Assembly (NCBI GenBank): GCA_950072105.1
Contig: CATMOE010000008.1
Location: 1 to 64,000, forward strand
Direction of reading: 5' to 3'
DNA from: an uncultured Dehalococcoidia bacterium
GTDB taxonomy: Bacteria; Chloroflexota; Dehalococcoidia; Lucifugimonadales; UBA3495
DNA length: 64,000 nucleotides
Shown: positions 19,696 to 40,039 of the stretch, piece by piece
How the letters are laid out: each line of letters starts with the position of its first letter
Position numbering within the stretch: the stretch's first letter is position 1
Program-made: the position numbers and the translations under genes
Notes under the pieces: model-generated
The model's input: the letters and a program-made list of their open reading frames with translations, nothing else
Told to the model about the DNA's origin: nothing
The model's database searches: none

Positions 19696-22658
19696 CTACC
19701 AGGACACCAGGCCTTGCCGGGCTGCGTAGGCTGCCGCTTCCGTGCGGTTGGCGGCGCCTGTTTTGGTGAGGATGCTGGTGACGTGGTGGGCCACGGTGCG
19801 GAGGCTTATGACCAGTTCTTCGGCGACCTCCCGGTTGTTCCTGCCCAGGGCCAGGAGCCGCAGGACCTCAACCTCCCGCTGGGTCAGTCCGGCGGGGTAG
19901 GTGGACGGGGCCGCCGGTTGAGTTTCGATCGCTTGCCGGCGGGACTGCGCTCGCTCCATCAAAGGCGGCATACCCAACTCTGTAGAGATAGCCACCGATT
20001 CGTCCAGGAGAACGGCTGCCCTCTCGCGGTCACCGGGTCCGCCTCGTTGACATAACGCGTCGGCGTAGTCGCAGCAGGTCCAGGCCAACTCGGGACGGTA
20101 GTCTGTTTTGCGGCAGCAGTCCAGAGCCTCCTCAAAGTGTCCGGCTGCCACGTCCAGATTGCCCATGGTTTGGGCCAGGAGTCCCAACCGGCGTTGCACG
20201 CTGGCCATGTCCAAGACTATCAGGAACGTGTCCCTCACCTCGTATAGCGCAGCATATTGCTCCGCCGCGGCATCAACATCCCCTCGCTGCACGGCCATCA
20301 TCCCTAAGCCTACCCTGGCGGCTAGGGTGAAACGGGGGATGTCGAAAGGGGACGAAAGAATAATACCAGCGGCGGCTTCAGCGGCCTCGAAGCGGTCCGT
20401 GACGCCGGTGATCCGGGCTACTGACGCAATCACCAATGCCGCAACGGCAAATGGCTGGGGAGTCACGGAGGCGCTTTGATTCATTGCCTGGATCAGTGTT
20501 TCCAGGTAGGTTGATCCCTGCTCGAAGTTGCCAATCTCAAATTCCAACTGGGCCCGGCAACCAAGGAGTTGCGGGAACGTTTGACCAACTTCCAATCCGC
20601 GATCACTAAGCGCGCGGGCGGCAGTCCAATCGCCTCGGCGGTAGGCAGATATCACATTGGCATAGAAAGCTCTTGCCCGCTGCCTCCGAGGAACACGCTC
20701 AACTGAGACCAACATGGCCTCTGCATGCCGCCGGGCGCCATCAAAGTCACCCATGGCCCTAAGAGATTCAAAGGCGGAAAGCCTCGCCCAGTTATCGGCT
20801 TCAGGATTTTCTCCTTGGGTTAACAGAGAAATGGCTTGCAGGCTTTTCTCTAGGCTCTCCTCCCAGTGAATTACGTCCGACTCCACATGGGAAGCCATAC
20901 TCAAAGTTTGCGCTTCCAAAGCCGTGTTACCCTCAAGCCGGGCGATGGCAATGGCCCGGTCGAAGGATTCAACAGCGCCGGTGTAGTCGGCCGTTTCGTG
21001 ATAGATATCAAAGGCGTAATGGCACAGAAGCTGTCCTGCCGATATGGAGTCCTTAGGCACAAGACTTAAGGCACGGGCGCGGACCTGGTGTTGCAATCCT
21101 CCGCTTAGTGCCAAGCCGGAAAAGTGTTGGAGCAGGCGATGGCCACCGCCTGCTCCACATTCCCCGCATCAACATAAAAATCAAAGGCGCTCTTCATGTT
21201 GGAATACGCCTCGATTCTGGTCTGGTTGTCTAGCATCGCTGCCTGGGAGCGGCCTAACCCGAACAGGAGCGCCGCTGAGTCGTCATCCACCGGCTGTCCT
21301 TCCTTGGCAGCCAGCGCACGATCGAATACAAATAGAGCTTCCTCCCAAGCGTACGCGGCCAAAGCCTGCTCCCCGGCGGCAAGGGAATAACGCACCAACT
21401 TTTCGGTGCCCAGCACCGGCTCGGCCTCAGCGAAATGGTGGGCCAGCTCGGCGGCATGGGTTTCAACTTCGGCGCCATACAGCTCTTCCAATGCCACGCC
21501 GATCCTGGCGTGCAGACGCACTTGCCGGGCGGCAGATATCTCGCTGACCAACGTCTCTTGTATCAAAGCATGTTGAAATTGAAACCGCTCTGCTCCCATG
21601 CGGACCTCTTCTAGAACTCCTGCTTTAAGAGCTTCATCCAGCAATTCCAACAATTGATCTTCGCTAAAATCACTGCTCAATTCCTCAAGCAGATCAAGAT
21701 TGAACTGTCTACCAACCACTGCGGCAGTCGTAAGTACACGGTTGCACTCGCTGGACAACCGGTTCAGCCGCCTGCCTATCGCGTCCCGGATGCCTTCTGG
21801 AACCATTGCGGCCCAGCCTGGGTCCGTGGCCACTTCTCCCTGGCTGAGCAACCGTACTATTTCGTTAACGAACAGCGGGTTTCCTTCGGTGCGCCGGTGC
21901 ACCAAGTCCAAAGCGTTATCGGGTAGAGCAACTCCGGCGCTGAGCTCGGCAAATTCGCTCACTTCCTGCTGCGTTAAGCCACCAAGCTGGATCCGTCGGA
22001 ACAGTTGCTCGCGCATGAGGCTGCCCAACGTCTGCGATAATGGGTGCTGCCGCGACACCTCTACGTCACGGTAGGTACCCACCAGCAGCAGGTTGCTAGC
22101 CGCCATGCCACGAGCCAGGAATTCCAGCAAAAGCAGAGAGGCGTGGTCGCCCCAATGCAAGTCGTCCAGGACGATTACCAGCGGTTGAGACTGGGAGGCA
22201 TTTTTCAAGAAGGTGGTGACGGAGTCGAAGAGACGGAACCGGGCCGGCTCGGGCTCCAACGCAGGCGGGTCTGTAAGATCGGGCAGCTTTTCCCGTAAGC
22301 CGGGAATCAATTCAGCGATGTGGGACGCGCCGGGTCCCATCGCCGAACTTAGCTGGTCAGGGTCTTGTTCGCTGATGAAAGAGCCGATGGACTGGATCCA
22401 CCGCCAGTAGGGGGGCGCCCCCTCTTCTTCGTAGCACCGGCCCCAAAGGACTCGGGCTCCTTGGGTTTCGGCGTAGGTAGTCAACTCTTGGGCTGTTCGA
22501 GTTTTGCCGATGCCCGGCTCACCCACCAGCATCACCATTTGCCCGCGCCCGGCCAGGGATTCTTCCAAGGCCGCCCTTAGCTCACCCATCTCTCTCTGCC
22601 GGCCAACGAAGACGCCGGAGGAGGCACGGGAACTTGATTGAGACGAAGGCTGTGACAT
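19696..22658 (-). pseudogene. Large ATP-binding LuxR-family regulator (AAA + TPR + HTH), frameshifted near 21120
   Basis: FVGR, GEPGIGKT and LDDLHW in 21105-22658; LuxR HTH (LTQREVEVLRLLALG) in 19696-21114. One extra T in a T4 run would join them. Confidence 0.85.
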
Positions 22659-22796
22659 GGGGCCAGTATAGTTGGAATGGATAGAGGGTTCCAGTGCCGG
22701 TGTGTATTGGTCATCCTACCTAAGGCCGTGTCTGCTTAGATTCGATTTGGAATATAATTTGTCTTGAAAACTGGGAGTGCCCTAAGAACGAATAGA

Positions 22797-23261
22797 GTGG
22801 ATTGGGAAGAATTCAAACGCGCTGATCCAGAATTAACGGCCTTGGGCGAAGAGCGCATGGAGGCAACCGGGTTGGTGCTATTGGGTACCCTGAGAAAAAA
22901 CGGTTTCCCGCGCATCTCGCCGGTGGAACCGCTCTTGACTATGGGGCGTCTCTACCTGGGGATGATGTGGCAGTCGCGCAAGGCGCTGGACCTTCTGCGC
23001 GATCCACGGTGCACCGTGCACAGCACGGTTTCGGACCGGCACGGCAGTGAGGGAGGGTTTAAGCTGTATGGACGTGGTCTGGAGATCCGGGATCTGGAAG
23101 AGCGGCGTCTCTACAGTGAGGCGCTTCATGAGAAGATCGGATTCAAGCCGGAAGAGCCGGAGTTCCACCTGTTCGCGGTTGACATCGAGAGCGCGGCTTA
23201 CGCTGTGATCAGAGATGGGGAGTGGTTCCGTCGGATTTGGAATGCCGCCGGTCGCGGCTGA
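22797..23261 (+). CDS. Pyridoxamine 5'-phosphate oxidase-like (split barrel) protein
   Basis: LGTLRKNGFPRISP and KALDLLRDPRC motifs. Confidence 0.8.
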   Translation: MDWEEFKRADPELTALGEERMEATGLVLLGTLRKNGFPRISPVEPLLTMGRLYLGMMWQSRKALDLLRDPRCTVHSTVSDRHGSEGGFKLYGRGLEIRDLEERRLYSEALHEKIGFKPEEPEFHLFAVDIESAAYAVIRDGEWFRRIWNAAGRG

Positions 23262-23393
23262 GAATGTGGGCAGATCGGCGAGTGCTGTTAGGTTGAAGGA
23301 GCAGCCGGACTGGTAAATGGACCGTGCCGGGGGAAGGGGAATCACCCCGGCACGGGAGAATGTAGTCTTCGTTCGGACCTAGGCAAAGATTTC

Positions 23394-23657
23394 TTATACC
23401 GTTCCATTCACATGGCCGTTGGTAGCCTCGGCCAACACGGGTTGATTTTCCTTGCTCTGTCTCCGGGAGCGCATGGCGTCTACGTAACCGGCGGCCTTGT
23501 CGCGAATCCCGTCGGCCTTGTTGCGAAGCTCGTCGGCTCGGGCCGCCACGATCTGCCGAGACTGTTTACCGGGTTTGGGCGCGAATAATAGGCCGGCAAC
23601 CGCGCCCAAAGCGGCGCCAGCGATAAGACCTGTGACCAACTTGTTTGTGTTAACCAT
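23394..23657 (-). CDS. YtxH domain protein
   Basis: GLIAGAALGAVAGLLFAPKPGKQSR; AGGAGG RBS. Confidence 0.88.
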   Translation of the reverse strand: MVNTNKLVTGLIAGAALGAVAGLLFAPKPGKQSRQIVAARADELRNKADGIRDKAAGYVDAMRSRRQSKENQPVLAEATNGHVNGTV

Positions 23658-23726
23658 TGTCGTTCCTCCTGTATCTTGTTCCGTTCGGCTGCTCTAACTT
23701 GTAAACCTATTAAACGATACCCAGCG

Positions 23727-23770
23727 TTACCGGGGAATTACTGTTGAATTACCGGCTTATTACCGGGGAG
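23727..23770. repeat. Four 11-bp-phased direct repeats upstream of ytxH
   Basis: TTACCGGGGAA/TTACTGTTGAA/TTACCGGCTTA/TTACCGGGGAG. Confidence 0.65.
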
Positions 23771-24058
23771 TGATTCCGGGCGCGGACGTACGAGCCCAGT
23801 AATACCATGCGAGATAGATAACCAAAGGAAACCAGGTTACTTAAATCCTGGTTAGACGCGGGTATTGTGGGAGTGGAGTCTGGGATTTGAGGAATGCCTT
23901 AATATGCGGGATTTTAAGACGCACCTCCGGACCGACCTGATCTGCCGAGAGGGTGGCCTGGATGGCGTGGGACTAGGATGGATTGTCTGAGGCGAAAATG
24001 CACCGATGGCTACATCAGGCTGGGTGGCAAGGTCTAGGACACGGAAAAGACGCTCGCT

Positions 24059-24826
24059 CTACTTGTCCCGGTATCCCCTGGGGGTTGCCATGTGCCCCTG
24101 CAGCAGGTAGGTGGTGGAGTTTCCGATGACCACGGTGGTGACCATGTTGATGTCCTCGGCGATCCCTTCCAGCCCTTCCAGGTCGGTGATAGTCACCTGT
24201 TGCCCCGGCCGAAAAGCGTCCTTGACGACGCCGACTGGGGTTTTACCAGAGCGATGCTCAAGAAGTATGCGCCGGGCCTCCATCAGTTGCCATTGGCGGG
24301 TCCGGCTTCGGGGGTTGTATAGGGCGACGACGAAATCTCCCTGGGCTGCCGCCTTCAGCCGTTGTTCGATGGCCGTCCATGGGGTCAGCAGGTCGCTGAG
24401 ACTGATGGCGCAGAAGTCCTGCATCAAGGGCGCGCCCAGCAAGGCGGCGGCGGCCTGCATGGCGGAGATGCCGGGCACCGTTTCCACTTGAGGGTTGATC
24501 CCGTCCCAATCCAAACCATTTAGCACTTGGAACACCGGGCCGGACATGCCGTAGATGCCGGCGTCTCCCGAAGACACCACCGACACCACCCGACCCGCGT
24601 AAGCCAACTCCACGGCCTTGGACGCCCGCTCAATCTCCTGGCCCAATTCCATGGAGACGAGTTCCTTGCCAGCTAGCAAGTCTCCGGCCTGTTCGATATA
24701 CGCACGGAACCCGACAACGACGTCCGATTCCTCCAGGGCCGACATGGCCGCACCCGTCAAGTACTCAGCCTCGCCGGGTCCTAGGCCAACAAGAAACAGC
24801 TTGCCTTGTTTGTTGTCGTTAGCCAC
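24059..24826 (-). CDS. cbiH: Cobalt-precorrin-3B C17-methyltransferase
   Basis: VGLGPG, SSGDAGIYGM, DFCAISLSDLLTPW, YNPRS and TPRGY motifs. Confidence 0.92.
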   Translation of the reverse strand: MANDNKQGKLFLVGLGPGEAEYLTGAAMSALEESDVVVGFRAYIEQAGDLLAGKELVSMELGQEIERASKAVELAYAGRVVSVVSSGDAGIYGMSGPVFQVLNGLDWDGINPQVETVPGISAMQAAAALLGAPLMQDFCAISLSDLLTPWTAIEQRLKAAAQGDFVVALYNPRSRTRQWQLMEARRILLEHRSGKTPVGVVKDAFRPGQQVTITDLEGLEGIAEDINMVTTVVIGNSTTYLLQGHMATPRGYRDK

Positions 24827-25241
24827 AGAGACACAGAGGCACGGAGGGTTTAGAAGATGAGCCGTTTGATGCCATTTGTTAGCAACCTTGAGTTAAAGTT
24901 CATTAAGAGACCAATTTTCTTGCCGGTGATCTTTAGGTAGGTTAACACTTGGGCCTCGAAGAGGGGATCGTGACGTTCGACACTTTTAATTTCCACCACC
25001 ACCGTATCTTCCACGACGAGTTCGATCCGGTAATCACCAATCTGTTCCCCTTTGTAGGTGAGTGGTATCGGCACCTGTCGTTGATACTGAAGCCCTTGGA
25101 GACCCAACTCGACACATAGGGCTGCCTCGTAGGCGCTCTCGAGAAGTCCCGGCCCCAAATGCCGGTGCACTTCTATCCCACAACCTATGATCCTTTCCGT
25201 AATTTTATTTAACTCTGTGATCTCTGTGTTTCTGTGGCTAA
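24819..25241. mobile_element. Inverted-repeat-bounded GxxExxY cassette (putative minimal mobile element)
   Basis: TTAGCCACAGAGACACAGAG (24819-24838) matches the reverse complement of 25222-25241 (TTAGCCACAGAAACACAGAG) at 19/20 positions. Confidence 0.65.
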
Positions 25242-25245
25242 TCAA
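24850..25245 (-). CDS. GxxExxY family protein (PD-(D/E)XK fold)
   Basis: VHRHLGPGLLESAYE, VVEIKS, AQVLTYLK and GLLMNF motifs. Confidence 0.92.
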   Translation of the reverse strand: MISHRNTEITELNKITERIIGCGIEVHRHLGPGLLESAYEAALCVELGLQGLQYQRQVPIPLTYKGEQIGDYRIELVVEDTVVVEIKSVERHDPLFEAQVLTYLKITGKKIGLLMNFNSRLLTNGIKRLIF

Positions 25246-26375
25246 GACTTATCAGCGCCGTAGAACATTCGGGCAACGGCGACGGTTGCGCGGTCGGTTT
25301 TGGTTTTGGTGACTAATAGTTCGGTTGCGGATGAAGCCAATAGGGCGGCGGGTTCGCATACGCCCCAGATTCCCAACAATCTGTGAGGTTCTGGGGAGGG
25401 TGTTGGACCCAGTTCAGAGCCTTCAGGAGGGAACATGGAGTTCAGATCTGATTCGCCGTAGCAGTGGACCGGCACTTGGAGCTTGGCCGCCATCTGTCCG
25501 ATGCCTACTTCGTCGCGCTTTAACTCGGCGGTGGCGATGCAGTTGATGCTGGCCTTAGCCAGGTTGTTATCGCGGAATGTAGTGTCGATCAGGTGCTCTA
25601 GATGTTCCATGGGGACGCCACGGCGGCACCCCAGGCCAACCGCCAAGCTACGAGGCCGATATACCACGACGAATTTGCCGGGCAAGGCATCGGAATAGGT
25701 CTTTTCGCTGGAATGATCCTGGGCCGCCAGGTCGGTGATTACCAGCGCGGCGGCGCATGGGGATTCAGCCAAAGACTGTAAAGATCGGTACACCTCGACG
25801 TTGTCTGGCAACGGCTGGCCGGAAGGCCACCAGCCGGTCTCCCCGGCCTCCTGATATATACCCACCGGCTCTCCGTTTATGGAGATGGCGCTGGCTCTTG
25901 TGACAGTCAGCGGGTCCGCTTCTATCTGCCAGCCGAATTCCTGACCAAGTAAGTCCACGGCCAGGCGTCCGGTCACGTGGGATGCCGAGGTTACGACGGG
26001 AGAAGCGTCCAGGATGGAGGCTACTTCTTGAGCCAGCTTGTCAGCCCCGCCCAGGTGTCCCGAAAGCAGGCTCACGGCGAACCGCCCGGCGTCGTCGACG
26101 CAAACAACGGCAGGGTCACGGTGCTTGTGATCTAGGCATGGCGCCAGCAGCCTGACCGCTGCCCCCACGGGCATGAAAAGCACTAATCGCCGGCACTCTT
26201 GGAAAACACTTTGAACCAGAGGGCGGGCCGGCAGGTCGAAAGCTACTGCGTTATCTTCCTCAACCAAAAAGCGCCGGTCCAGATAAAGGGTCGAGCCGCC
26301 GCCCAATTCGGTGGCAACCCTACGGGCCAGCTCTGCGCCGTTGCGGGAAATAGCGACGATGGCGGTATCGGTCAT
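25242..26375 (-). CDS. cbiG: Cobalt-precorrin-5A hydrolase
   Basis: KHRDPAVV, SLLSGHLGGA, GLGCRRG and GVCEPAAL motifs. Confidence 0.9.
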   Translation of the reverse strand: MTDTAIVAISRNGAELARRVATELGGGSTLYLDRRFLVEEDNAVAFDLPARPLVQSVFQECRRLVLFMPVGAAVRLLAPCLDHKHRDPAVVCVDDAGRFAVSLLSGHLGGADKLAQEVASILDASPVVTSASHVTGRLAVDLLGQEFGWQIEADPLTVTRASAISINGEPVGIYQEAGETGWWPSGQPLPDNVEVYRSLQSLAESPCAAALVITDLAAQDHSSEKTYSDALPGKFVVVYRPRSLAVGLGCRRGVPMEHLEHLIDTTFRDNNLAKASINCIATAELKRDEVGIGQMAAKLQVPVHCYGESDLNSMFPPEGSELGPTPSPEPHRLLGIWGVCEPAALLASSATELLVTKTKTDRATVAVARMFYGADKS

Positions 26376-26385
26376 GGCCTGGTGT

Positions 26386-27234
26386 TCACTGCCCGCCGCC
26401 GCTGGAGCCCTCCTCCACATCGGAAGACTCCGCCTCGGCCCGGCGGTAGAGGTGGGTGTAGTCGCTGGCATAGAGGTGGGACGACGAGACGCCGTTGGCC
26501 GCAGTGGGGACGTGATGAAGCAGGGCCGGGTCCATCGCTTCGCCAACCATGATTAGAGCCTGCAAGGTGATCTTGGCATCCCTGACCTTGGCGGCAATGT
26601 CGCTAAGGGTGCCCCGAATAATCTTTTCGTCCGGCCAACCCACCCGGTAGACAACAGCCACCGGAGTGGATTCAGTGTAACCCGCTTCTAATAACTGGCG
26701 CACCACGGTGAACATCCGCGTGATACTTAAAAATATGACTAGCGTGGAACCATGAGCCGCCAGGTCTTTCAGTTGTTCTCCGGGTGGCATGGAGACACGG
26801 CCTTGTGCCCGGGTCATGATCACCGTCTGGGACCCGCCGGGTATGGTCAATTCGACTTTCAGCCGGGCGGCCGCCGCGAAGGCCGCGCTTACCCCCGGTA
26901 TGATTTCGTAATCTACCTGGGCCTCTTCCAAGATTCGCATCTGTTCCAGGACGGCCCCGTAGATTGAAGGGTCGCCGCTCTGGATGCGAGCCACGGTCTT
27001 CCCCTGGCGAACCGATTCCAATGTCAACTCCATGATTTCGCTCAGGTTCAGAGTCTTGCTGCCATGGACCTCGGCGCCGGGCTTGGCGAAATCCACGATG
27101 GAAGGATGGACCAGGGAGTCGGCGTATATGATTACATCGGCGGACTCGATCACCGATTTGGCTTTTAACGTCAACAACTCCGGGTCGCCGGGGCCGCCGC
27201 CAACTATATATACCTTGCCTTGGCTTTGAGCCAT
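26386..27234 (-). CDS. cbiF: Cobalt-precorrin-4 C11-methyltransferase
   Basis: YADSLV, SGDPSIYGA, ELTIPGGSQTVI and SHLY motifs. Confidence 0.92.
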   Translation of the reverse strand: MAQSQGKVYIVGGGPGDPELLTLKAKSVIESADVIIYADSLVHPSIVDFAKPGAEVHGSKTLNLSEIMELTLESVRQGKTVARIQSGDPSIYGAVLEQMRILEEAQVDYEIIPGVSAAFAAAARLKVELTIPGGSQTVIMTRAQGRVSMPPGEQLKDLAAHGSTLVIFLSITRMFTVVRQLLEAGYTESTPVAVVYRVGWPDEKIIRGTLSDIAAKVRDAKITLQALIMVGEAMDPALLHHVPTAANGVSSSHLYASDYTHLYRRAEAESSDVEEGSSGGGQ

Positions 27235-27238
27235 TCTT

Positions 27239-27964
27239 TTACCTCTTGATTATCAGAAGGGAGAAATAGTCCAGGTCTTCCTCGGAGAGCGTGCTAAGGT
27301 CCCTGACCACCTCTTCCCGGGCGGTGCTGGCACGGCGTACGTATATGCCCTTTCCGGCCAAGCCCAGTTGCTCCAGATTAGCCAGCGCTTGTAGCAGGGT
27401 GCGGTTAACCTTCATGAGGATGATGGTGTCGTAGTTGGCGATGGCTTCGGATAGGTCGTCGATCCCGTAGACGGCGGGCAGGATCACCAATCTCTGGCCG
27501 TGGGTGACCAGGGGAACTCCGGCGCTGGCTGCCGCCGCCATGACGGAGGACACGCCGGGAATGATCTCCACGGTAACCTCAGGGTATCCCGACTTGATGC
27601 TGTCCAACACGTAAGAAAAGGTGCTGTACAGCATGGGATCGCCTTCGGTGATAAACGCCACGTCCTTTCCTTGTTTGAGGTGGCCACCGATGGTGTCGGC
27701 GGCGTTCCGCCAGACCGCCGCGGCTCCCGCTTCGTCGTCGATGGGGAACGGAATCCGGATGATTTCCTGTTTTTTCTCGTCCAGGTAATCCCGCACGATG
27801 TCCAAGGCATAGCTTTCCTGGCTGGACTCCGAGCGAGGTGTACATATCACCGGCACCTCTTGGAGAACCCGTAGGGCTTTCAACGTGAGCAACTCCGGGT
27901 CGCCGGGACCCACGCCCACTCCGTAGAAGCGCCCGAAGTTGGTGCTATTTCCCGTCGTGCTCAT
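27239..27964 (-). CDS. cbiL: Cobalt-precorrin-2 C20-methyltransferase
   Basis: GVGVGPGDPELLTLKA, EGDPMLYSTF and YFSL motifs. Confidence 0.92.
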   Translation of the reverse strand: MSTTGNSTNFGRFYGVGVGPGDPELLTLKALRVLQEVPVICTPRSESSQESYALDIVRDYLDEKKQEIIRIPFPIDDEAGAAAVWRNAADTIGGHLKQGKDVAFITEGDPMLYSTFSYVLDSIKSGYPEVTVEIIPGVSSVMAAAASAGVPLVTHGQRLVILPAVYGIDDLSEAIANYDTIILMKVNRTLLQALANLEQLGLAGKGIYVRRASTAREEVVRDLSTLSEEDLDYFSLLIIKR

Positions 27965-27968
27965 CGAG

Positions 27969-28583
27969 CTATCCTTCTCGCCGGGCGGTCACCACGAAGA
28001 CCGGGTTAAGGGCCTCCAAACGGACCGTCCCGTCGGGCATATCTTTTCCTCTGGACGAGTTCACCATAACCATGTCGGCAACAAAACCCGACGACTTGAA
28101 GCGTTGGTATACTTCATTTGTGCGTTCCAAGGCAGCCAGGTTAACCACGATGCGGCCGCCTGCTCGCAGCCGCTTTATCGCCACGTCTAATATCTCCGCC
28201 AGGCTTCCGCCGCTGCCTCCCACGAACACCGCGTCTGGGTCAGGCAATTCCACCAGTGCGTCCGGCGCTTCTCCGGCGATGATATGAACGTTCTTTGAGC
28301 CCCACTGCTCCACGTTACGCCGGAGCAGCGGCAAGCTCTCTTCGTCACGCTCCACGGCGTAGACAGTGCCTTCCCGGGCGATTATAGACGCTTCGACAGA
28401 GATAGACCCGGTGCCGGCTCCGATGTCCCAAACCACGCTGCCGGGCCGGAGACCCAGGGAATAGAGGCTGACCGCGCGCACTTCCCGCTTGGTGATCTGC
28501 CCCTGCAGCGGGCGCCGTTGCTCGAAAGCATCGTCGGGAAGGCCCAATGCCCGTTGCGAAGCCGCCTGCAATTTCTCAACCAT
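27969..28583 (-). CDS. cbiT: Cobalt-precorrin-6B C15-methyltransferase (decarboxylating)
   Basis: ITKREVRAVSL, WDIGAGTGSISVE, FVGGSG and NPV motifs. Confidence 0.9.
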   Translation of the reverse strand: MVEKLQAASQRALGLPDDAFEQRRPLQGQITKREVRAVSLYSLGLRPGSVVWDIGAGTGSISVEASIIAREGTVYAVERDEESLPLLRRNVEQWGSKNVHIIAGEAPDALVELPDPDAVFVGGSGGSLAEILDVAIKRLRAGGRIVVNLAALERTNEVYQRFKSSGFVADMVMVNSSRGKDMPDGTVRLEALNPVFVVTARREG

Positions 28584-29787
28584 TGGTCTGGCTTCCGGCG
28601 GTGGCGATCAGCGGAAGGCCCTGGGGCGACGTGGAAGCCTGGCCCAAGAGTGCGCCGTCGAAATCGAAGCACAGGCTATCGACGATGAGTTTATTGGCGT
28701 CGTCGCCAAGTAGCTTATGGCTTTCTTCGCAGACCATCTCGCACATCAAGGTAAATACCGAGTTCAGACCGTTGGCCAGCGCAAGTTCCTGAAAGTGGCG
28801 GGCGCTGGCGGCTTGGCGTATCTCTTCTTGAACCTCATCGGTCGCACCGCATTGGGAGGCCAGGGCAGCCAGGAAGGTGGTGTCCACCCGGTTCCCGGCC
28901 ACGTGGGTCACGAAGTATCCTTGAGCCATTTTTGAGAGTTTGCCGACCATTCCAGCGTGGGTTGCCCGTTGGACGTTACGCATGACGCAACGTTTCAACG
29001 ACGGTCCGCTGAAGATGCCGGCCTCGATGTAAGCCATGTCCGGCAGGTCCAATACTTTTTTGGTGAAGATCTCGCTCTGCGTGCCGGTGGAAAGCACCAA
29101 GTGGGACAAGTCGTTGGTCGCCGCTACGTCTATGGCCATGTTCGCGCTGGCCCGCCATGCCGCGGTGGAAAAGGGCTGGACCACGCCGGTGCTGCCCAGG
29201 ATGGATATCCCTCCCAGGATTCCCAGGCGTGAGTTGGTGGTCTTTTCCGCGATCTCTTCGCCGTTGGGAACGGAGATCTCCACGACTAAGCCGGTTTCGG
29301 ACGGAAGGCCGTGGGTCGTGGCCGCTTCGTTCACAGAGTCGATTATCATGCGCCGGGGCACCCGGGTGACGGCCGGTTCGCCTACCTCGATCCCGACACC
29401 TGGGCGGGTCACTGTTCCCACGCCGATACCCCCGGCGATCCGTACTTTATCAGCGAAGTTTGGGTCCCTGTAGACCGTGACGCATATCTCCGCACCGTGG
29501 GTGACGTCCGGATCGTCGCCGCCGTCCTTGATGACCGAGCAGGTCACTTTGCTTCCATCATCCGAGGTCTGGCATCGGTGAATCTCGAAGGTGACCGATC
29601 TGCCTACCGGCAACTGAATCGTTGATTGGCCAACCGATTCCCCGGTGAGCAGGGATTGAGTGGCGGCCTTGGCCGCAGCTGCCGCGCATGACCCGGTGGT
29701 ATACCCGGTGCGCAGTCCCCCTCGCTTAACCGTTTGCCTGCTGTAGTCGCTTTCCGGCCTTTGGTCCGGATTCGGCTTGTCAACCAT
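28576..29787 (-). CDS. cbiD: Cobalt-precorrin-5B C1-methyltransferase
   Basis: LRTGYTTGSCAAAA, KDGGDDPDVTHG and RLGILGGISILG motifs. Confidence 0.95.
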   Translation of the reverse strand: MVDKPNPDQRPESDYSRQTVKRGGLRTGYTTGSCAAAAAKAATQSLLTGESVGQSTIQLPVGRSVTFEIHRCQTSDDGSKVTCSVIKDGGDDPDVTHGAEICVTVYRDPNFADKVRIAGGIGVGTVTRPGVGIEVGEPAVTRVPRRMIIDSVNEAATTHGLPSETGLVVEISVPNGEEIAEKTTNSRLGILGGISILGSTGVVQPFSTAAWRASANMAIDVAATNDLSHLVLSTGTQSEIFTKKVLDLPDMAYIEAGIFSGPSLKRCVMRNVQRATHAGMVGKLSKMAQGYFVTHVAGNRVDTTFLAALASQCGATDEVQEEIRQAASARHFQELALANGLNSVFTLMCEMVCEESHKLLGDDANKLIVDSLCFDFDGALLGQASTSPQGLPLIATAGSQTNG

Positions 29788-29820
29788 CGTGTTTTATCCG
29801 GTCACATGCTGGCGAGAGCA

Positions 29821-30744
29821 CTAGCCCTCCACCCGGTCCCATACTTGGCGTATCCGGTCAGCGGCCACCGCCACGATCCGGTCGTCAACGCCCAGAGGCG
29901 GCGTTACCGACAGAGATACGGTTGGGTGACTTTGAGCTATCCGGTCCATGCCCCCCAGAATGTTTCTCTTGAGGATTAGCCCGGGGAAAAACAGATAGGG
30001 AACGACCACGATACGCGCGACTCCCCGCTCCTCCACCAATCTCGTAGCGGCATCGTCCACCGTTGGGTCACCGTAGTGGGACTGGGCCACCGCAACAGCA
30101 TAGCCCAAACCAAGACGATTCTCTACCATGCGCCCCAAGTCCTGGAACCAGAGGCAATCGTCGTACTGGTTCTTGGTGCCTGCCTTGACCACAAGCACCC
30201 CGGTAGGACCTCCTTCCTTATTCGTAGGAGATTCTGTTTCGTTGGACAGGCCCAGACTTTGTACACGCTCCACTATGATCTCCGCCATGCGGGGATCAGG
30301 GCCCAACGATTCAGCCAGGTATAATCCCAACGAAGGCAGTTTCGCGCGTAACTCGTCCAGGATCTCGTCCATCTCCAAGGTGACATGCTTTCCCTGACCC
30401 AGCAGGTACGGGATGACCACCACCCGTTCCAGTCCCTGGTCCGCCATATTGTGGATGGACTGGTCTGGATGCGGTTCGATGAACTCCAAGCAAGAAAGCT
30501 CCACCTCGGCCCGTTGGCCGCCCAATGAGGATTGGAGGCGGTCTGCCGCATCCCTTAATCCCAATGGGGTGCTTGGACAATCCAGGCACCATGGGGGCCG
30601 TTCGTGTCCGGTCCCTCGCCAGGAACAGGAACACTCATCGGGGCTGGCGCCGCGCTGGCTGCCGTGGGCCACGAAAACAACACCCCACCGGCCGCCGCCG
30701 TTTTCGTCATTGCTACTGTCAGACATCTCCGGTCGTCCGGTCAT
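29821..30744 (-). CDS. cbiX: Two-domain CbiX/SirB-type chelatase
   Basis: AHGS, LEFIEP, PYLLGQGKH, second-domain VPYLFFPG and PLGVD; lies in the cbi operon. Confidence 0.85.
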   Translation of the reverse strand: MTGRPEMSDSSNDENGGGRWGVVFVAHGSQRGASPDECSCSWRGTGHERPPWCLDCPSTPLGLRDAADRLQSSLGGQRAEVELSCLEFIEPHPDQSIHNMADQGLERVVVIPYLLGQGKHVTLEMDEILDELRAKLPSLGLYLAESLGPDPRMAEIIVERVQSLGLSNETESPTNKEGGPTGVLVVKAGTKNQYDDCLWFQDLGRMVENRLGLGYAVAVAQSHYGDPTVDDAATRLVEERGVARIVVVPYLFFPGLILKRNILGGMDRIAQSHPTVSLSVTPPLGVDDRIVAVAADRIRQVWDRVEG

Positions 30745-31391
30745 GATGACGCCTTTTGGTCTATCAGCGACAGCAGGGCGTTGACGGTGGCCGCGGCGGC
30801 CGAGCTGCCGCCACGCCTTCCGTGCACGGTGATATAGGGGATGGGACCGGCGGCCAGTTCTTCCTTAGACTCGGCGCAGGCCACGAATCCCACGGGCATA
30901 CCGATGATTAATTTTGGCAAGGCTTTCCCTTCTTGAATCAAGTCCAGCAATGCTAACAAGGCGGTGGGGGCATTGCCAACGGCCACGACTGATCCGTTCA
31001 GATAGGGAGCTAATTCCCGAATGGCCGCAACCGAACGGGTGGTTCCCTCGCTTTGGGCGCGGGCCGCGACTTCCGGGGTGTCTATGCGGCATTGGGTGGC
31101 GACTTGATGGCTTTTGAGCAAGGCTTTGGATATTCCCATCTCCACCATCCGCACATCGGTAACGACCACGGCCCCGTCCCGAAGAGCGCCGATACCCAGG
31201 TCCACCGCTCCTGGGCTGAAGGACACGTCCAATGCTATCTGAGGGTCCCCTTCGGCCCGGACGATTCGGCTAACGACGTAGCGCTCGTTGCCGCTTAACG
31301 AGAGAGAGCCGGGCAGGGAAGCCTCCACCATTTTCAGGCTTTCCCGGTCGATCTCGTCCGGCAGCAAAGCGTATTTTTCAACCAGTGACAT
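30741..31391 (-). CDS. cbiC: Precorrin-8X methylmutase
   Basis: GNAPTAL, PVGFV, ESK and GRRGGS motifs. Confidence 0.93.
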   Translation of the reverse strand: MSLVEKYALLPDEIDRESLKMVEASLPGSLSLSGNERYVVSRIVRAEGDPQIALDVSFSPGAVDLGIGALRDGAVVVTDVRMVEMGISKALLKSHQVATQCRIDTPEVAARAQSEGTTRSVAAIRELAPYLNGSVVAVGNAPTALLALLDLIQEGKALPKLIIGMPVGFVACAESKEELAAGPIPYITVHGRRGGSSAAAATVNALLSLIDQKASS

Positions 31392-31455
31392 ATCAGTTAC
31401 TCAGACTCCGGCCGGGGTTTGAATACTAGGAGCCTCCGGCGATGCCAGGAAGGCA

Positions 31456-32739
31456 TCAACACTCCTCGGCCCCCAATTTAAAAATCTCCCGGGCCATGCG
31501 GAGGTCGCTGGGGCTTCGATGCTCCTTGAGGTAAACGGTGGGACCATGGAGAATCTTCTTGACGATAGCCTGGGTCATCGCCTCCAGGGTTGCGGTGTCA
31601 TCCGGGGATAGATCTGGGTTCATCTTCCGCAGGGTTTTTTTGAGTTCCTGCGCTCTGATGGTTTCAGCTTTGTCCCGTAGCGCGATCACCGTGGGAAGGG
31701 CTTGTTGGGCAAGGCGCCACTGAAGGAAACCTTCGGTCTCCTTGATGATCAACTCCTCCGCCTGCTCGGCTTCGTTGGCGGCGGCGATCCGGCGGGCTTC
31801 AGATACCCTGTCCAGGTCGTCCACGTCGTGAAGAAAAACGTTATCGACCAAGCCCGCTGCCGGGTCTATGTCTCTGGGTACAGCGATGTCTATCAGAAAC
31901 ATGGGCCGGTCAGGCCGGGAGGCCATGGCGTTACTGACCAGATCCGCGCCCAAGATGTATTCCGGCGAACCGGTACAGGCGACCACAAGATCGCTTTCCC
32001 GGAGGGCATCGGGCATTTCTGGAAGTGGCACGGCATGCCCGGACAGGGTCTTGGCCAGTTCCACCGCCCGATGATGGGTACGGTTAACCACGGTGATGTC
32101 CGACACGCCGGAAGAGCGCAATCCCATCGCTGCCAGGCCTCCGGCTTCTCCCGTGCCCAACACCATGGCGCTCAATCCGGTCAGATCTCCTAAGTCGCCC
32201 ACGGCCAATTCCACGCAGGCCTGGCTGACGGACATGGCATGCCGGCCGATGCCGGACTCCCGGCGTACCTTGCGTCCCACCCGTAGGGCTTGTTGGAAGA
32301 GTTGATACAACGGCCCGGTCACGGTTTCGCCGCGTACGGCCGTGTCAAAAGCTTCCCGCACCTGCCCGATTATCTGGTCTTCGCCCAACATCATCGAATC
32401 CAGGCTGGAGGCCACTCGAAAAAGGTGGCTGACGCACTCCCGTCCGCGATGAAGATAGAGGTATCTTTCGACGTCCACCAGCCGGATGTGGAAACAATCG
32501 ACCAAAAACTCTTTTATATTTTTCTCGCCTTCGCCCCATCCGGCAGACGAGTCCGACCCTTCTTGGGGATCCAAGGCGTAAAATTCGGAGCGGTTGCAGG
32601 TGGACAGGATGACGCCGGGCATTCCGTAAGCCGCCATGGTTGTCAAAGCGGAAGGAAGTTGCTCCGAATTCAGCGTTATCTTTTCCCGCACCTCCAGCGG
32701 CGCGGTACGGTGGTTCAATCCTACGACCAGGAATTCCAA
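31456..32739 (-). CDS. hemA: Glutamyl-tRNA reductase
   Basis: GLNHRTAP, STCNRSE, GEDQIIGQV and DIAVPRD motifs. Confidence 0.95.
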   Translation of the reverse strand: MEFLVVGLNHRTAPLEVREKITLNSEQLPSALTTMAAYGMPGVILSTCNRSEFYALDPQEGSDSSAGWGEGEKNIKEFLVDCFHIRLVDVERYLYLHRGRECVSHLFRVASSLDSMMLGEDQIIGQVREAFDTAVRGETVTGPLYQLFQQALRVGRKVRRESGIGRHAMSVSQACVELAVGDLGDLTGLSAMVLGTGEAGGLAAMGLRSSGVSDITVVNRTHHRAVELAKTLSGHAVPLPEMPDALRESDLVVACTGSPEYILGADLVSNAMASRPDRPMFLIDIAVPRDIDPAAGLVDNVFLHDVDDLDRVSEARRIAAANEAEQAEELIIKETEGFLQWRLAQQALPTVIALRDKAETIRAQELKKTLRKMNPDLSPDDTATLEAMTQAIVKKILHGPTVYLKEHRSPSDLRMAREIFKLGAEEC

Positions 32740-32809
32740 ATAATACTCCCTAGCTTGCCTCAACAAGAGTCCCTAGATGTGCCATTGTTCAGAGTTAAGG
32801 GCCGTTTGG

Positions 32810-32838
32810 AGTGTATTCTCGCGGCTATGCACTGTCAA
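32810..32838 (-). promoter_or_regulatory. Sigma70 promoter of the hemA-cbi operon
   Basis: TTGACA-17-TACACT on the minus strand. Confidence 0.65.
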
Positions 32839-32891
32839 CGCTGGACGCCTGGCGGTGGGGTCGCCGAAACCGAATTACATAGGCATGTGGT

Positions 32892-34286
32892 CTAGTCATC
32901 CGCCGGTGTTGAGGACAGACTTGGTGTCGGCACTACCTCGGCTTCGGCGGATTCCGGCGGTTGCAGTTGGGTCCCCAGATTTCGCACTTTGCTGTTGAGC
33001 AGACCCGGACCAATGGCGAAGGCTGCCACGAACAGCCCTCCGATCGCGATGGCGAAGGGCACCGTGATAAAGCTGAAGCCGGCCAGGGCGCTGGCCTGCA
33101 TTCCTCCCAGGGGCATTATGCTCCAGGTCATTCCGTAGAACCCCATCACCCTCCCGCGCATCCGGTCTGGCACCAGCATCTGAAGAGAACTTTGGATGGA
33201 GATCATATAGCCGGAGTTGCAGGCGCCCATGACGAACAATATGGCCATCACCACGTAGAGAGACCCGATAAACTGGGCGGCCATGGCGAAGGTGGCCACC
33301 AGCAATCCGAAAGCCACGGCGCCGCCGATGATAAATGGGCCCTTGTTCACCACATTGCCGCGGGCCCCGAACCAAATGGTGGTGAGCAGCGCGCCGATTC
33401 CACCGACGCCCAACATCAGCCCTTGTCCCCGGGCGCCCACGTCCAGGATATCCACCGCGAAGACAGGCATGAGCATGATATAGGCCATGCCGAAGAAGCT
33501 GTTGAAGAAGGTCATGCTGATGAGGAAAGAGAATATGGAATTGCGCTTTATGAAGCGGAGACCCTCCAGCATGTCCTGGGCGGCGTTGCCCCGGGAACCC
33601 CGGGGAATCGGCGGTACCTGGAGGAAGAACATGACTACCGACATCGTCAAGAACCCGGCCCCGGCTATAAAGAAGGCGGCTTCGGTGTTGATGAAGTCGA
33701 TGATGAATCCGGCTATGGCTGGGGCGATGATCCGGGTGCTCTGCCAGATGACGGAGTTCATGGCCACCGCGCTCATCATGACCTTGCGATCTATCAGGTG
33801 AGGGTAGATGGCCTGACGAGCCGGAGTATCGAAAGCCTCCACGGCGCCGGCCAGAAAAGCGATCGCCAGAATGTGCCACGGCTGCACGACATCTAATAGG
33901 GTGAGTATCGCCAGTAGAAAAATCAGGCCGGCAGTGGTGGCCTGAGTGCATACGATCAGCAGGCGCTTGTCCAGTTTGTCGGCGAATACGCCGCCAAAGA
34001 GGTTGAAGAACATACCGGGGAGGGCGTTGGCGACGCCCGCATACCCCAAGAACCAAGGCGAGTCGGTGATGAGGTAGATCAGCCAGAGTTGGCCGACACG
34101 GAACATCTGGTAACCGCTAACCGCCGCCAACATCCCGAGCCAGTAGGCCCGGTATTTGGGGTATTGCAGCGCCGGAGGTAAGAAGGATTTCGCAAACCCC
34201 CGTCTCCGGCGGCGGAATGCGGGTCCCATGGCGACGGCCATGAAGACGACGCCAAAGGCCAGAATCACCAGGCCGATGAAGGTCAT
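32892..34286 (-). CDS. MFS transporter with an extra N-terminal TM segment
   Basis: GGVFADKLDKR motif A, PDRMRGRV, and about 12 hydrophobic segments. Confidence 0.9.
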   Translation of the reverse strand: MTFIGLVILAFGVVFMAVAMGPAFRRRRRGFAKSFLPPALQYPKYRAYWLGMLAAVSGYQMFRVGQLWLIYLITDSPWFLGYAGVANALPGMFFNLFGGVFADKLDKRLLIVCTQATTAGLIFLLAILTLLDVVQPWHILAIAFLAGAVEAFDTPARQAIYPHLIDRKVMMSAVAMNSVIWQSTRIIAPAIAGFIIDFINTEAAFFIAGAGFLTMSVVMFFLQVPPIPRGSRGNAAQDMLEGLRFIKRNSIFSFLISMTFFNSFFGMAYIMLMPVFAVDILDVGARGQGLMLGVGGIGALLTTIWFGARGNVVNKGPFIIGGAVAFGLLVATFAMAAQFIGSLYVVMAILFVMGACNSGYMISIQSSLQMLVPDRMRGRVMGFYGMTWSIMPLGGMQASALAGFSFITVPFAIAIGGLFVAAFAIGPGLLNSKVRNLGTQLQPPESAEAEVVPTPSLSSTPADD

Positions 34287-34448
34287 GATGCGGGTGCGGA
34301 AGTTAACAGACCCGGTAGGATCATCCCGCGCCGATAGACCACTGGAGAGGGGACTATTTGTAGATCGGAGAGATGTCCCGGATCAGCGTTAACGCCGTGA
34401 TCAGATAAATACGTGCTTTTCCTCGATTGGCCAGGCCGTGGGTGAGTT

Positions 34449-34703
34449 TTAAACCTTGGCGGCCGGCTTATCCCGCTGGACCAGCATACCTTCCAGGATT
34501 CGCTCAAGAGCCATGGTATGGCTGCACACGCCCCTGGTGTCGAAATAGTGGCACTGACAGTCCCATCCGGCTTCGTCGTAGGTGATCTGATAAGTATTGT
34601 GGTTACCATCGAAGCTCGCCTGCAGAGTGGTGATCGTCACCCGCTCCTTCTGCTCGGCGTAGGTCCTGGACTTCTCGATCTTGCTCACTATGCTGGAGTC
34701 CAT
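34449..34703 (-). CDS. Small SWIM zinc-finger protein
   Basis: CQC...CSH; GGAGGT RBS. Confidence 0.75.
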   Translation of the reverse strand: MDSSIVSKIEKSRTYAEQKERVTITTLQASFDGNHNTYQITYDEAGWDCQCHYFDTRGVCSHTMALERILEGMLVQRDKPAAKV

Positions 34704-34859
34704 TGTCACCTCCGAACCATTTATGATTATGGGCCGTGAGATGGGCCGCCGCCCTTAAACCCCGATTGTACTATCCACCCTTATTGTAGTCGTTATGACC
34801 GGATAAATTCAAATTTTGATTCAGGCGTTGCGAGCGCGGAAAATATTCAGAGCGTTCGA

Positions 34860-34888
34860 TTGACGCTATTTGGCCCTTGGCATACAAT
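34860..34888 (+). promoter_or_regulatory. Promoter of alaS
   Basis: TTGACG-17-TACAAT. Confidence 0.6.
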
Positions 34889-34938
34889 TTCAACCACTTC
34901 AACGCGTCCCGTAATCTCAGTAAAGCGAGTCTAGAAAC

Positions 34939-37908: not shown

Positions 37909-37945
37909 GTTTGACAATGGAGCTGAGACGCTGAGACTGCTGGCT

Positions 37946-38344
37946 TTGGACCTGGGAGAGAAACGTATCGGACTGGCGGTAAGCGACCCTGAAGGGAGGC
38001 TGACCCTGCCGGCGGGACACCTTCAGCGTACCAAGCTGGTTGAGGATGTGCGCCGGGTGTTGGAAGCGGCCGGGGAGCGAAGGGTAGAGGGATTGGTGGT
38101 GGGCATTCCTTATAGCATTAACGGCGAAACCGGCCCTCAGGCAAAACGGGCCCTGGTTTTCGTGAGGGCTCTCCGGAAACAAACCTCCCTGCCGGTGCAC
38201 GAAACCGACGAGCGGTACACCTCGGTGGAAGCCGAGGCGCTGATGCGGGAGGCGGGCCACCAGCCCTCCAGGGACCGCGCCGCCGTGGACGAAGCCTCGG
38301 CAGTTTTGATTCTACAGCGGTTTTTGGACGCGCGGACCGGCTGA
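37946..38344 (+). CDS. ruvX: RuvX/YqgF pre-16S rRNA nuclease
   Basis: DLGEKRIGLAVSD, DERYTS and DEASAVLILQ motifs. The true start is probably a few codons upstream. Confidence 0.9.
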   Translation: MDLGEKRIGLAVSDPEGRLTLPAGHLQRTKLVEDVRRVLEAAGERRVEGLVVGIPYSINGETGPQAKRALVFVRALRKQTSLPVHETDERYTSVEAEALMREAGHQPSRDRAAVDEASAVLILQRFLDARTG

Positions 38345-38355
38345 TGACATTGTAC

Positions 38356-38384
38356 GTAGGGGCGGGTTTAAAACCCGCCCCTAC
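38356..38384. repeat. GTAG-type REP-like palindrome
   Basis: GTAGGGGCGGGTTTAAAACCCGCCCCTAC between convergent genes. Confidence 0.75.
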
Positions 38385-38416
38385 AGCTACCTGAGATCTT
38401 TGGTCAATCCTATTAA

Positions 38417-39193
38417 CTAGTCCAGATAGGTTCGGTCGAAGTCTTCGGACAACAGATCCATCGCGTCCATGTCCCAGTCGAAGGAAAGCACCACCGAGCG
38501 GTCGGACGTCGCGGACAGCAGGCGCTTCCCATTCTTGGCCACCACGCTCTCGGCCTCCCGGTAGTCCAACTCCTCCGGCTCTTCCCCGGTGCGGTTGCAC
38601 ACCATTATCGGCAAACCGGTATCCAAGGAACGCTGCTCCCACTCGCCGTCGGGTCCGCAGCGGCCCGGACCCCACGACACAGGGGATACCAACAGCTCGG
38701 CGCCGTTGTCTTTCAACGCCTGAGCAACTTCGTTCTTGTAGGCGTCGGCGCAGATCAGGATCCCTGCCTGCACCCCACCGCATTCCACGGGTACGATCTT
38801 CGTGCCGGCGGTGGACCAAGACTCGGCGCCGCCCAGGGCTTTAATCTTGCTGTGCTTGCCGACGATATGGCCTTCTTGGTTGATAACGAACACCGTGTTG
38901 TACAGCTTGTCGGTTGCGGGGTCACGTTCGGGATGGGACAGGAAGACCGAAACGTTCCGTTTCTTGACCAACTTGCAGAATTCCTCCATCCAGGGACCTG
39001 GCTGGGGGGTGATCCAGTCGGTGCCGATCTGCTTCATGAACAGGTAACCGGGTATGCATAGCTCGGGGGTAATCACCCAGTCGGCCCCATCGTCGGCGGC
39101 CACATTAACCGCGCGCTCCACCAGCCGGCGGTTGTGTTCAATGTCGCATGTGACCGGGGCTAGGTGTAGAAATGAAACCCGCAGCTTTCGCAT
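38417..39193 (-). CDS. Carbon-nitrogen hydrolase (nitrilase superfamily)
   Basis: E-K-C triad in PEL, HSK and ICAD. Confidence 0.88.
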   Translation of the reverse strand: MRKLRVSFLHLAPVTCDIEHNRRLVERAVNVAADDGADWVITPELCIPGYLFMKQIGTDWITPQPGPWMEEFCKLVKKRNVSVFLSHPERDPATDKLYNTVFVINQEGHIVGKHSKIKALGGAESWSTAGTKIVPVECGGVQAGILICADAYKNEVAQALKDNGAELLVSPVSWGPGRCGPDGEWEQRSLDTGLPIMVCNRTGEEPEELDYREAESVVAKNGKRLLSATSDRSVVLSFDWDMDAMDLLSEDFDRTYLD

Positions 39194-39399
39194 ACTTTCC
39201 TTTTGTGTATCCGGAGGATGGAGAGTACCCGTTTGGGTGATCTCCCATCGCCGGGTTGCACCTGTATGGTTGACGGCAATTATAGCACCAGCTAGTTTTA
39301 GCCCGGAAGCCGTATTGGGTTTACTTGACGCATGGAGGCGGGGGCGGGAGAATAGAAAAGCGCATCTCCATAGATCGCCGTCTCCGGCGAACAGCGCGT

Positions 39400-39473
39400 T
39401 GCCCGGTGGTGTAGTGGTAGCACATCAGCCTTTGGAGCTGAGGGCCCTGGTTCGAGCCCAGGCCGGGTAGCCA
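39400..39473 (+). tRNA. tRNA-Gln(TTG)
   Basis: TGCCCGG/CCGGGTA acceptor stem, TCAGC-CT-TTG-GA-GCTGA anticodon arm, GGTTCGAGCCC, CCA. Confidence 0.96.
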
Positions 39474-39541
39474 GCATTCCCCTCTATATAGGGCACAGCG
39501 CTTGTGTCTGACCCATTTTTTACTGAGTGCAGGAGACTCCA

Positions 39542-39988: not shown

Positions 39989-40039
39989 GACACTTCGATG
40001 ATCCGTAGACGTTCACTGCATCTGGAACCTAACCTTCAA

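Follow-up and report, generated by a model that had tools for sequence, protein, structure and literature searches.

A GxxExxY nuclease gene between inverted arms at the cbiG/cbiH junction of a Dehalococcoidia bacterium: a likely long-resident cassette, possibly of a repeat-plus-nuclease class of its own

Introduction

Between cbiG and cbiH of an uncultured Dehalococcoidia bacterium lies a gene of the GxxExxY family bounded by two inverted repeats (arms), and the cassette formed by gene and arms is likely an old, vertically inherited resident of this junction. It was analysed in a stretch of 64,000 nucleotides (the window, to which plain coordinates refer) of the source genome, G000; the samples containing this DNA are marine and vent samples. 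According to the reading that we favour, to which slightly less than an even chance is given, the cassette is an old copy of a widespread element, whose nuclease would cut at or near its own arms, while host recombination would copy or swap the arm-bounded units. What is new at this locus is its dated history, the swapping of alleles, the apparently derived capture of a start codon and an Asp-to-Glu change in the protein (D75E). The last of these, as well as a population of gene-less hairpins, had been missed in an earlier note on this DNA, with which several of the results below are compared.

Architecture of the cassette

The stop codon of cbiG (25242..26375, minus strand; start set at the ATG after cbiF, the mechanical ORF extending to 26546), which carries three CbiG Pfam domains, abuts the left arm (25213..25241, minus strand), composed of a TTAGC head and three CACAGAG-type units, with the core at 25222-25241. 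The first base of the left arm directly follows the cbiG TGA, and the arm codes for the first residues of the GxxExxY protein (ISHRNTE), as the earlier note described, the abutment itself being lineage-specific. The GxxExxY gene (24850..25245, minus strand; 131 aa) starts with a TTG that overlaps the cbiG TGA, and its product reaches 144.9 bits with TIGR04256 (cut-off 35) and 140 bits with PF13366 (cut-off 22). The right arm (24819..24846, plus strand; core 24819-24838) is inverted with respect to the left one and holds the GTG (24826-24824, minus strand) of cbiH/cobJ, the precorrin-3B C17-methyltransferase gene (24059..24826, minus strand; TIGR01466, 300.9 bits, cut-off 246). The open frame of cbiH comprises 277 aa and the 22 in-frame codons upstream of the GTG include no ATG, GTG or TTG, so that the codon in the right arm is the only canonical start which keeps a complete CbiH N-terminus, in agreement with the earlier claim.

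The arm cores (24819-24838 and 25222-25241) are complementary at 19/20 positions, with 383 nt between them. Such a pair is unique within 1 kb spacing in the window, and 10 shuffles gave 0 pairs; complementarity and profile scores thus bear out the 20-bp inverted arms around a GxxExxY gene reported before. The approximately three CACAGAG-like units per arm are also seen, the third one being looser and reaching about 24846 and 25213. Profile matches within the cassette are limited to PF13366 and TIGR04256, i.e., no transposase gene is found inside. A sigma-70 promoter scan gave 0 sites, and the cassette has no Rfam match. The Rfam search of 20000-40000 returned only a tRNA gene, at 39400-39470 (RF00005, 61.7 bits). 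Four TTACCGG-type words at 11-nt spacing (23727-23774), upstream of a YtxH-like gene, are possibly a regulator binding array.

History of the cbiG/cbiH junction

The model derived from the earlier note is one of recent and precise insertion, in which the element would have entered a TGATG stop/start overlap and donated the cbiH start on arrival; the note suggested that alignment of cbiG-cbiH junctions would reveal the empty site. The arithmetic of the deletion product is right, but among 141 cbiH loci (111 distinct 60-nt ends) gathered from genomes and metagenomes the TGATG empty site was found in none; 14 loci of other lineages show TAATG near the start. Arms are present at every one of the 11 distinct junctions whose CbiH is at least 77% identical, and the overall count of distinct armed junctions is 18, leaving out L020 and L144 (misplaced anchors) as well as L015 and L195 (weak). 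In most other, more distant lineages the junction is short and arm-free.

The divergence of the gene argues in the same direction. Between L001 and L076 its dS is 1.02 (0.65-1.89), as compared with 1.23 for cbiG and 0.82 for cbiH; the gene diverges in step with its neighbours and the copy is therefore considered old at this junction. The dN/dS ratio of the same pair, 0.061 (0.028-0.110), indicates purifying selection, hence the gene has been kept by selection on the protein; for L001 and L075 dN/dS is 0.15. The proposal of a transposase-free mobile unit thus stands as far as gene and arms forming a unit with no transposase inside is concerned, whereas a clean recent insertion does not agree with a dS that matches the neighbours.

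At this junction the gene has been repeatedly broken, internally deleted or replaced by gene-less alleles. It is intact in G000, L065, L075, L076, L003 and L109, broken by an internal stop in L066 and L067, and reduced to internally deleted remnants in L008, L011, L085, L086, L103 and L129 (detected by protein match in all of these except L103), while L002, L068-L074 and L077 are gene-less hairpins. A gene remnant in the hairpin interior is significant for L002/L072 (3' end, z 3.9-4.7) and L073 (5' end, z 3.0), and not significant for L068, L071 and L077. On trees of cbiH and cbiG, including a quick tree from which 20 duplicate or short rows were removed first, full and hairpin alleles are interleaved; for both genes AU tests reject full alleles as one clade and hairpins as one clade (p 3e-4 or less). 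For a single origin of the junction copies the AU test gave p 0.15-0.16, which neither establishes such an origin nor rejects it. The cbiH genes of L003 (full) and L077 (hairpin; one short metagenome contig) are 97.3% identical, yet the entire junction differs. L068, of a type found in four contigs, resembles G000 in 28/30 bases on each flank, with an ACC left arm and a different interior. The tracts of such allele swaps extend no further than about 30 nt from the arms.

A nuclease gene at a fixed intergenic site, gene-free alleles in relatives, the interleaving on both flanking trees and the narrow limits of the swap tracts would also suit a free-standing homing endonuclease, which cuts alleles without the gene so that break repair copies the cassette in, the hairpins being a decayed, resistant stage. 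We find this explanation rather improbable. In the pair L001-L075 the gene dS is 0.34 against 0.26 and 0.18 in the flanks; the gene has thus diverged no less than they have, and nothing in these values points to a homing sweep. Moreover, a protein of 131 aa probably has little room for a long recognition site, and two observations described further below, i.e., relatives of the gene at unrelated junctions and hairpins dispersed over the genome, also speak against homing, the latter being left unexplained by it.

Several further features were recorded. An arm is duplicated in tandem together with part of the gene end in L003 (left arm) and in L109, L129 and L086 (right arm and 3' end), which suggests recombination or slippage at the arms. 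In L066, L076, L003, L147 and L148 the left arm gives the upstream gene its stop or last codons. In distant relatives the cbiG/cbiH junction is occupied by other hairpin families, CAGGAT-type in L190 (G049) and GTCATTCC..GGAATC type in L056 (G110). No excision was seen among assembled contigs, and two joints are accounted for otherwise: the joint 24838-25222 (X10, X15, X18) is the C61 hairpin locus instead, and that at 24841-25270 in X15 (30 nt side) possibly stems from a hairpin allele of a relative. Raw reads have no bearing on excision, as X22 yielded 16, all of them off the cassette, and X23 yielded none.

The cbiH start codon and the transcript

In L002, L072, L073, L074 and L077 a purine-rich spacer follows the right arm and cbiH has its own ATG-G(C/T)T-AAC 15-20 nt past it; spacer and start are similar in L008, L085 and L103, which are remnant alleles of distant lineages. 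Aligned with these, the G000 junction appears to lack about 21 nt that would separate the end of the arm from this look-alike start. Because spacer and own ATG are common to close and distant alleles, the arm-borne cbiH start likely results from a later fusion, and the fused state is, from the aligned alleles, likely the derived one. The start codon was then probably not donated on arrival, in disagreement with the earlier note, which was right that the target resembles the element's own end, as the native cbiH start of the sister alleles does. This resemblance, the fused start in 7/7 close full-length or stop-broken alleles, and a possible independent arrival that replaced the spacer in the G010 lineage (AU p 0.15 for one origin) are the points in favour of recent insertion. 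Given the missing empty site, a dS about 1 and the common spacer, that model is the least probable of those considered and is already largely refuted.

An arm-borne GTG is present also in L003, L011 and L129, each with a different N-terminus, which implies that such a start likely arose more than once. It occurs in stop-broken or gene-less alleles too (L066/67, L068-71, L011, L129), so that translation of cbiH cannot depend strictly on the nuclease ORF. Programmed frameshifting as a way of reading on from cbiG into the nuclease gene was dropped as well, the frame offset differing between L001 and L076. Three intact genes (L075, L076, L003) have no ATG, GTG or TTG ahead of the conserved first helix, yet two of them were measured under purifying selection; all three have an in-frame ATC in the left arm, and our guess is that they use a rare start with an arm-supplied ribosome site.

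When naked RNA was folded, the fused cbiH start was buried in an arm-arm stem (P unpaired 0.0), as opposed to 0.43-0.97 for separate starts, and the predicted arm-arm pairing had P of at least 0.96 at 18/20 positions. The left arm matches the right arm of its own locus at 18.0/24 positions on average versus 17.0/24 across loci, a difference reached in 1% of permutations of rows that are related to one another. Both results, together with the mostly co-oriented placement of cassettes in operons and the splicing endonucleases among the structural matches (see below), are in line with an element acting at RNA level, whose arms would pair in the transcript, where RNase III or GxxExxY itself would cut them, with either release in the manner of an intervening sequence or segmental mRNA stability being under selection. 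RNA-library contigs of three studies cross the arms, and one covers the whole cassette (DNA carry-over being possible); these contigs, the lack of an Rfam match and the fact that an RNA-level element offers no route between junctions and phyla make this alternative, in our opinion, even less probable than homing.

Arm sites elsewhere in the genome and in relatives

A genome scan for further CACAGAG-type copies, which the earlier note had suggested, was productive. A degenerate arm pattern built from the copies gave 17 exact matches in G000 and 0 in two Markov simulations, and an independent pattern search gave 18 matches and 0 with a reversed control. The gene-less sites comprise 17 two-armed ones and one single arm. 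The two-armed sites are mostly 53-97 nt long with AT-rich loops (one has 188 nt), and the hairpins are 46-86% alike. By mechanical ORFs, the gene-less sites lie at gene boundaries, often 3-50 nt past a stop. Their arms are direct repeats of the unit with a TTAGCC or TTCACC head, and folding pairs arm with arm. G000 has also a second GxxExxY gene, 55% identical to the first, with related ACC-type arms, between neighbours that we take to be nuoF and nuoG.

Eight other G000 sites were compared with the orthologous sites of five relatives. At the C101 site G000 has a hairpin and G002 a full gene; at the nuo site G000 and G054 have the full gene, G001 and G002 have a hairpin, and G010 has neither. 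At a given site the two arms change together between GCC and ACC type, and unrelated hairpin families sit at two of the compared sites. Since G002 has arm-family elements at 7/8 of the tested sites, most hairpins are considered old. The one exact empty site (C61 in G001) likely reflects a loss by way of 3-nt microhomology, because G002 and G010 retain the hairpin. Neither near-identical dispersed copies nor filled/empty pairs from recent jumps were found among the hairpins compared, and this lack of recent transposition in the genomes compared weighs against the reading that we favour. In four genomes of another genus and in G097, 14/16 fetched hairpins were 75-76 nt long; their identity is 68-89% and their flanks are unlike, a pattern that fits the copying, long ago, of a unit lacking the gene. 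The 75-nt hairpins of this other genus (L296-L311) are often nested in an outer inverted repeat of CAATCGCATTTTGAGG type.

No target-site duplication was detected at 14 G000 hairpins (mean direct repeat 2.14 nt vs 2.20 in shuffled pairs), and at 16 other hairpins direct repeats were absent or 2-3 nt long, although old age could have erased such duplications. The Y1 transposase (PF01797) was found in 0/6 genomes, i.e., G000 (92% complete), G001, G002 and three others. The hairpin type does not always fit the resident gene, which again weighs against our main reading: in G054 the gene is ACC-armed, yet 38/43 arm matches are of GCC type. Furthermore, G001, G015, G046 and G082 contain arms with no TIGR04256 match at E<=1e-20.

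Other repeats of G000 were noted alongside. Both of its DUF559 genes, C94:3471-3797 (L320) and C1:176582-176896 (L321), are flanked by inverted copies of a CCCCC..CCT..AGGGGG hairpin, which has 163 loose-pattern matches in G000 (a count made with no control) and takes the place of the CACAGAG hairpin at one G010 site. DUF559 genes with these arms look like a second system of nuclease and arms that runs in parallel. G000 also contains 92 matches to a third repeat word, TTCGACARGCTCA, whose hairpin fills the C29 site in G002; a short GIY-YIG gene at C38:565-780 is not flanked by this word.

The GxxExxY family

The earlier note had also suggested a search of other GxxExxY genes for inverted arms. 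Such arms were found at 35/49 loci versus 0/47 displaced controls, and at 32/39 further loci versus 0/35, the remaining 14/49 and 7/39 loci lying below the arm threshold; these sets, selected for similarity to the query, contain the present locus as well as a few duplicates and are non-independent. On a quick protein tree GCC-, ACC/TTAC-, CAGGAT- and CGAAT-type arms fall on separate clades, with automatic arm labels that are wrong for some rows (the G000 copy, L032, is GCC). The GCC clade unites this copy with genes of Acidobacteriota, Verrucomicrobiota, Ignavibacteriota and Marinimicrobia at unrelated, co-oriented operon junctions, where the neighbours, judged by eye, are carrier protein/ligase, efflux adaptor/ABC, gltB/gltD and carA genes. 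As this clade spans phyla at unrelated junctions, gene and arms have travelled together for long periods, and the insertion at other gene junctions expected by the earlier note is found in several phyla. Sequence comparison therefore supports mobility of gene and arms at the level of the family. Relatives 69-70% identical occupy unrelated junctions, and cassettes are mostly co-oriented with host operons.

The GxxExxY family is very large (8000/8000 scored candidates passed). In the host family the gene is present in 98/200 genomes, in 1-4 copies each, and no close subfamily member outside G000 was found in a phylum search of 401 genomes. On vectors the gene is rare, with 0/50,697 phage records, 8/72,556 plasmid records and 2 viral contigs.

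One may ask whether the gene is only a passenger, i.e., whether the arms are a REP-like family that is spread by another factor and kept as mRNA hairpins, GxxExxY being a captured repair or defence nuclease which is useful to the host and does not act on the arms. Strong purifying selection at a fixed site, the low copy number, the rarity on plasmids and phages, other hairpin families at the same junctions in relatives and arm-rich genomes with no detected cognate gene all agree with this explanation; linkage alone can suffice for the congruence of protein and arms. We consider it unlikely, albeit the strongest of the alternatives, because most GxxExxY genes are armed in many phyla and the arm type tracks the protein clade, no Y1 transposase was found in the six genomes searched, and the gene has been lost repeatedly in sister lineages. 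In addition, PADLOC returned no defence model beyond weak Cas4 matches (best E 0.006).

The GxxExxY protein

The predicted structure (pLDDT 90.7) has a minimal PD-(D/E)XK fold and Pfam agrees, which confirms the fold named in the earlier note. The top VIA and Foldseek matches are PD-(D/E)XK folds (Z 6.8-7.8, best Foldseek E 0.012), one of the best being Cas4 SSO0001 (Z 7.7, rmsd 4.2, 100 aligned). AddA, lambda-type exonucleases, restriction enzymes and Hjc are likewise among the best, all with moderate scores, and splicing endonucleases match the same fold at Z 5.2-5.9. All Z values are below 8, no Foldseek match reached E<=0.001 and a sequence search of PDB gave 0 matches. Across 90 sequences there is no variation at E40, K87, Q99 and Y103, and hardly any at D75 and E85. 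The QxxxY motif is, as we take it, the mark of the RecB/Cas4 lineage, and a catalytic role of E40, D75, E85-x-K87 and Q99-x-x-x-Y103 is presumed by extension from the PD-(D/E)XK superfamily. We infer that the protein is a RecB/Cas4-lineage nuclease with these residues in its putative active site.

The G000 copy retains E40, E85, K87, Q99 and Y103, and has Glu75 in place of Asp. Among the 100 scored homologues (of 120 proteins), 90 have Asp75, and the 10 with Glu75 are all near-identical to G000. The G000 copy may be weakened by the D75E change.

A model of arm-bounded mobility

A role of the nuclease in driving the mobility of the arms is proposed here. In this mechanism the protein would recognise the units of 8-9 nt, probably in an extruded form, either hairpin or cruciform, and a cut at the arm end would prime repair synthesis or strand exchange. 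Rarely, the unit would enter a new junction; more commonly, one arm-bounded unit would be converted to another at an occupied site. Neither repair-based insertion nor conversion would leave a target duplication. One or two gene copies per genome could serve the hairpins in trans, as RAYT does for REPINs. The arm-borne cbiH start would have come later, when the 21 nt separating the end of the arm from the similar native start were lost, and ribosomes translating cbiG and the nuclease gene would open the stem formed by the arms, which is predicted to hide this start. The cassette may thus be tolerated because it is read within the operon message, translation melting the stem.

A broader proposal can be made, of which we are more doubtful than of the reading given at the outset: GxxExxY genes may be the engines of undescribed transposase-free mobile DNA, characterised by a Cas4/RecB-like nuclease, clade-specific arm codes, a hairpin population, a parallel DUF559 system and stop/start capture. 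If this were true, a nuclease of about 130 residues would recognise its own arms and insert or gene-convert units without target duplication, and a resident arm could take over the stop or start of a neighbour, thus joining an essential operon.

Comparison with known systems

REPIN-RAYT is the system that the cassette resembles. REPINs are extragenic inverted doublets with a variable spacer, as are the 17 two-armed G000 sites, and in both cases a low-copy, long-resident nuclease gene, rare on plasmids and phages, is tied to the repeat (bioRxiv 10.1101/2021.07.10.451892). However, RAYT is an HUH/Y1 enzyme and the cassette enzyme is of PD-(D/E)XK type; the cassette gene lies inside one arm pair and decays to a hairpin; and the arms are tandem 8-9 nt units, not self-palindromic REPs, with no GTAG/CGTC-type tag. 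Furthermore, the cassette is present at many sites across phyla, whereas RAYTs hold one site and seldom move (bioRxiv 10.1101/2021.07.10.451892). The cassette is therefore not a member of this system, as enzyme class and arm structure differ.

GTAG/CGTC REP superfamilies are presented as extragenic hairpins beside genes whose termini often give the flanking ORF its TAG stop (PMC3733652). The arm head of the cassette likewise supplies a stop in L003, L076, L147 and L148, but the arms have no GTAG or CGTC tag, and the string CACAGAG is absent from the main text of that paper, to which the search was confined. With IS elements and MITEs the cassette shares a gene between terminal inverted repeats and gene-less derivatives with the same ends. 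It differs from them in having no DDE or other known transposase, no target duplication above chance and no near-identical copies, and membership fails on these three points; moreover, it has long been vertically resident under purifying selection.

The seg/mob free-standing homing endonucleases of T4-like phages are GIY-YIG/HNH enzymes; each is encoded by a lone gene between conserved genes of the same transcript, and stop/start overlaps and weak signals for translation are found there too (PMC2988022). The resemblance is one of position only, since the GxxExxY gene is arm-bounded, its family occupies many unrelated junctions and gene-less hairpins are abundant. In a superfamily review the same family is a single table entry (PDDEXK_3 / GxxExxY), with function 'Unknown' and 'multiple transfers', and flanking repeats, hairpins or a mobility unit are not mentioned in that entry (PMC3424549). 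In the searched literature, a body that leaves out most subscription papers and supplements, no description of the gene-plus-arms unit was found; 'GxxExxY' occurs in passing mentions only among the matches listed, and 'TIGR04256' in none. The cassette is of a repeat-plus-nuclease kind and possibly forms a class of its own.

Concluding remarks

This locus presents a life history that includes long residence under selection, repeated decay, allele swapping and the capture of the cbiH start. Because the arms give a concrete candidate substrate, the function of GxxExxY is now directly testable. If GxxExxY mobilises its arms, it would constitute a REPIN/RAYT-like system built on a different enzyme class, and it would be a source of many intergenic hairpins that are so far unexplained.
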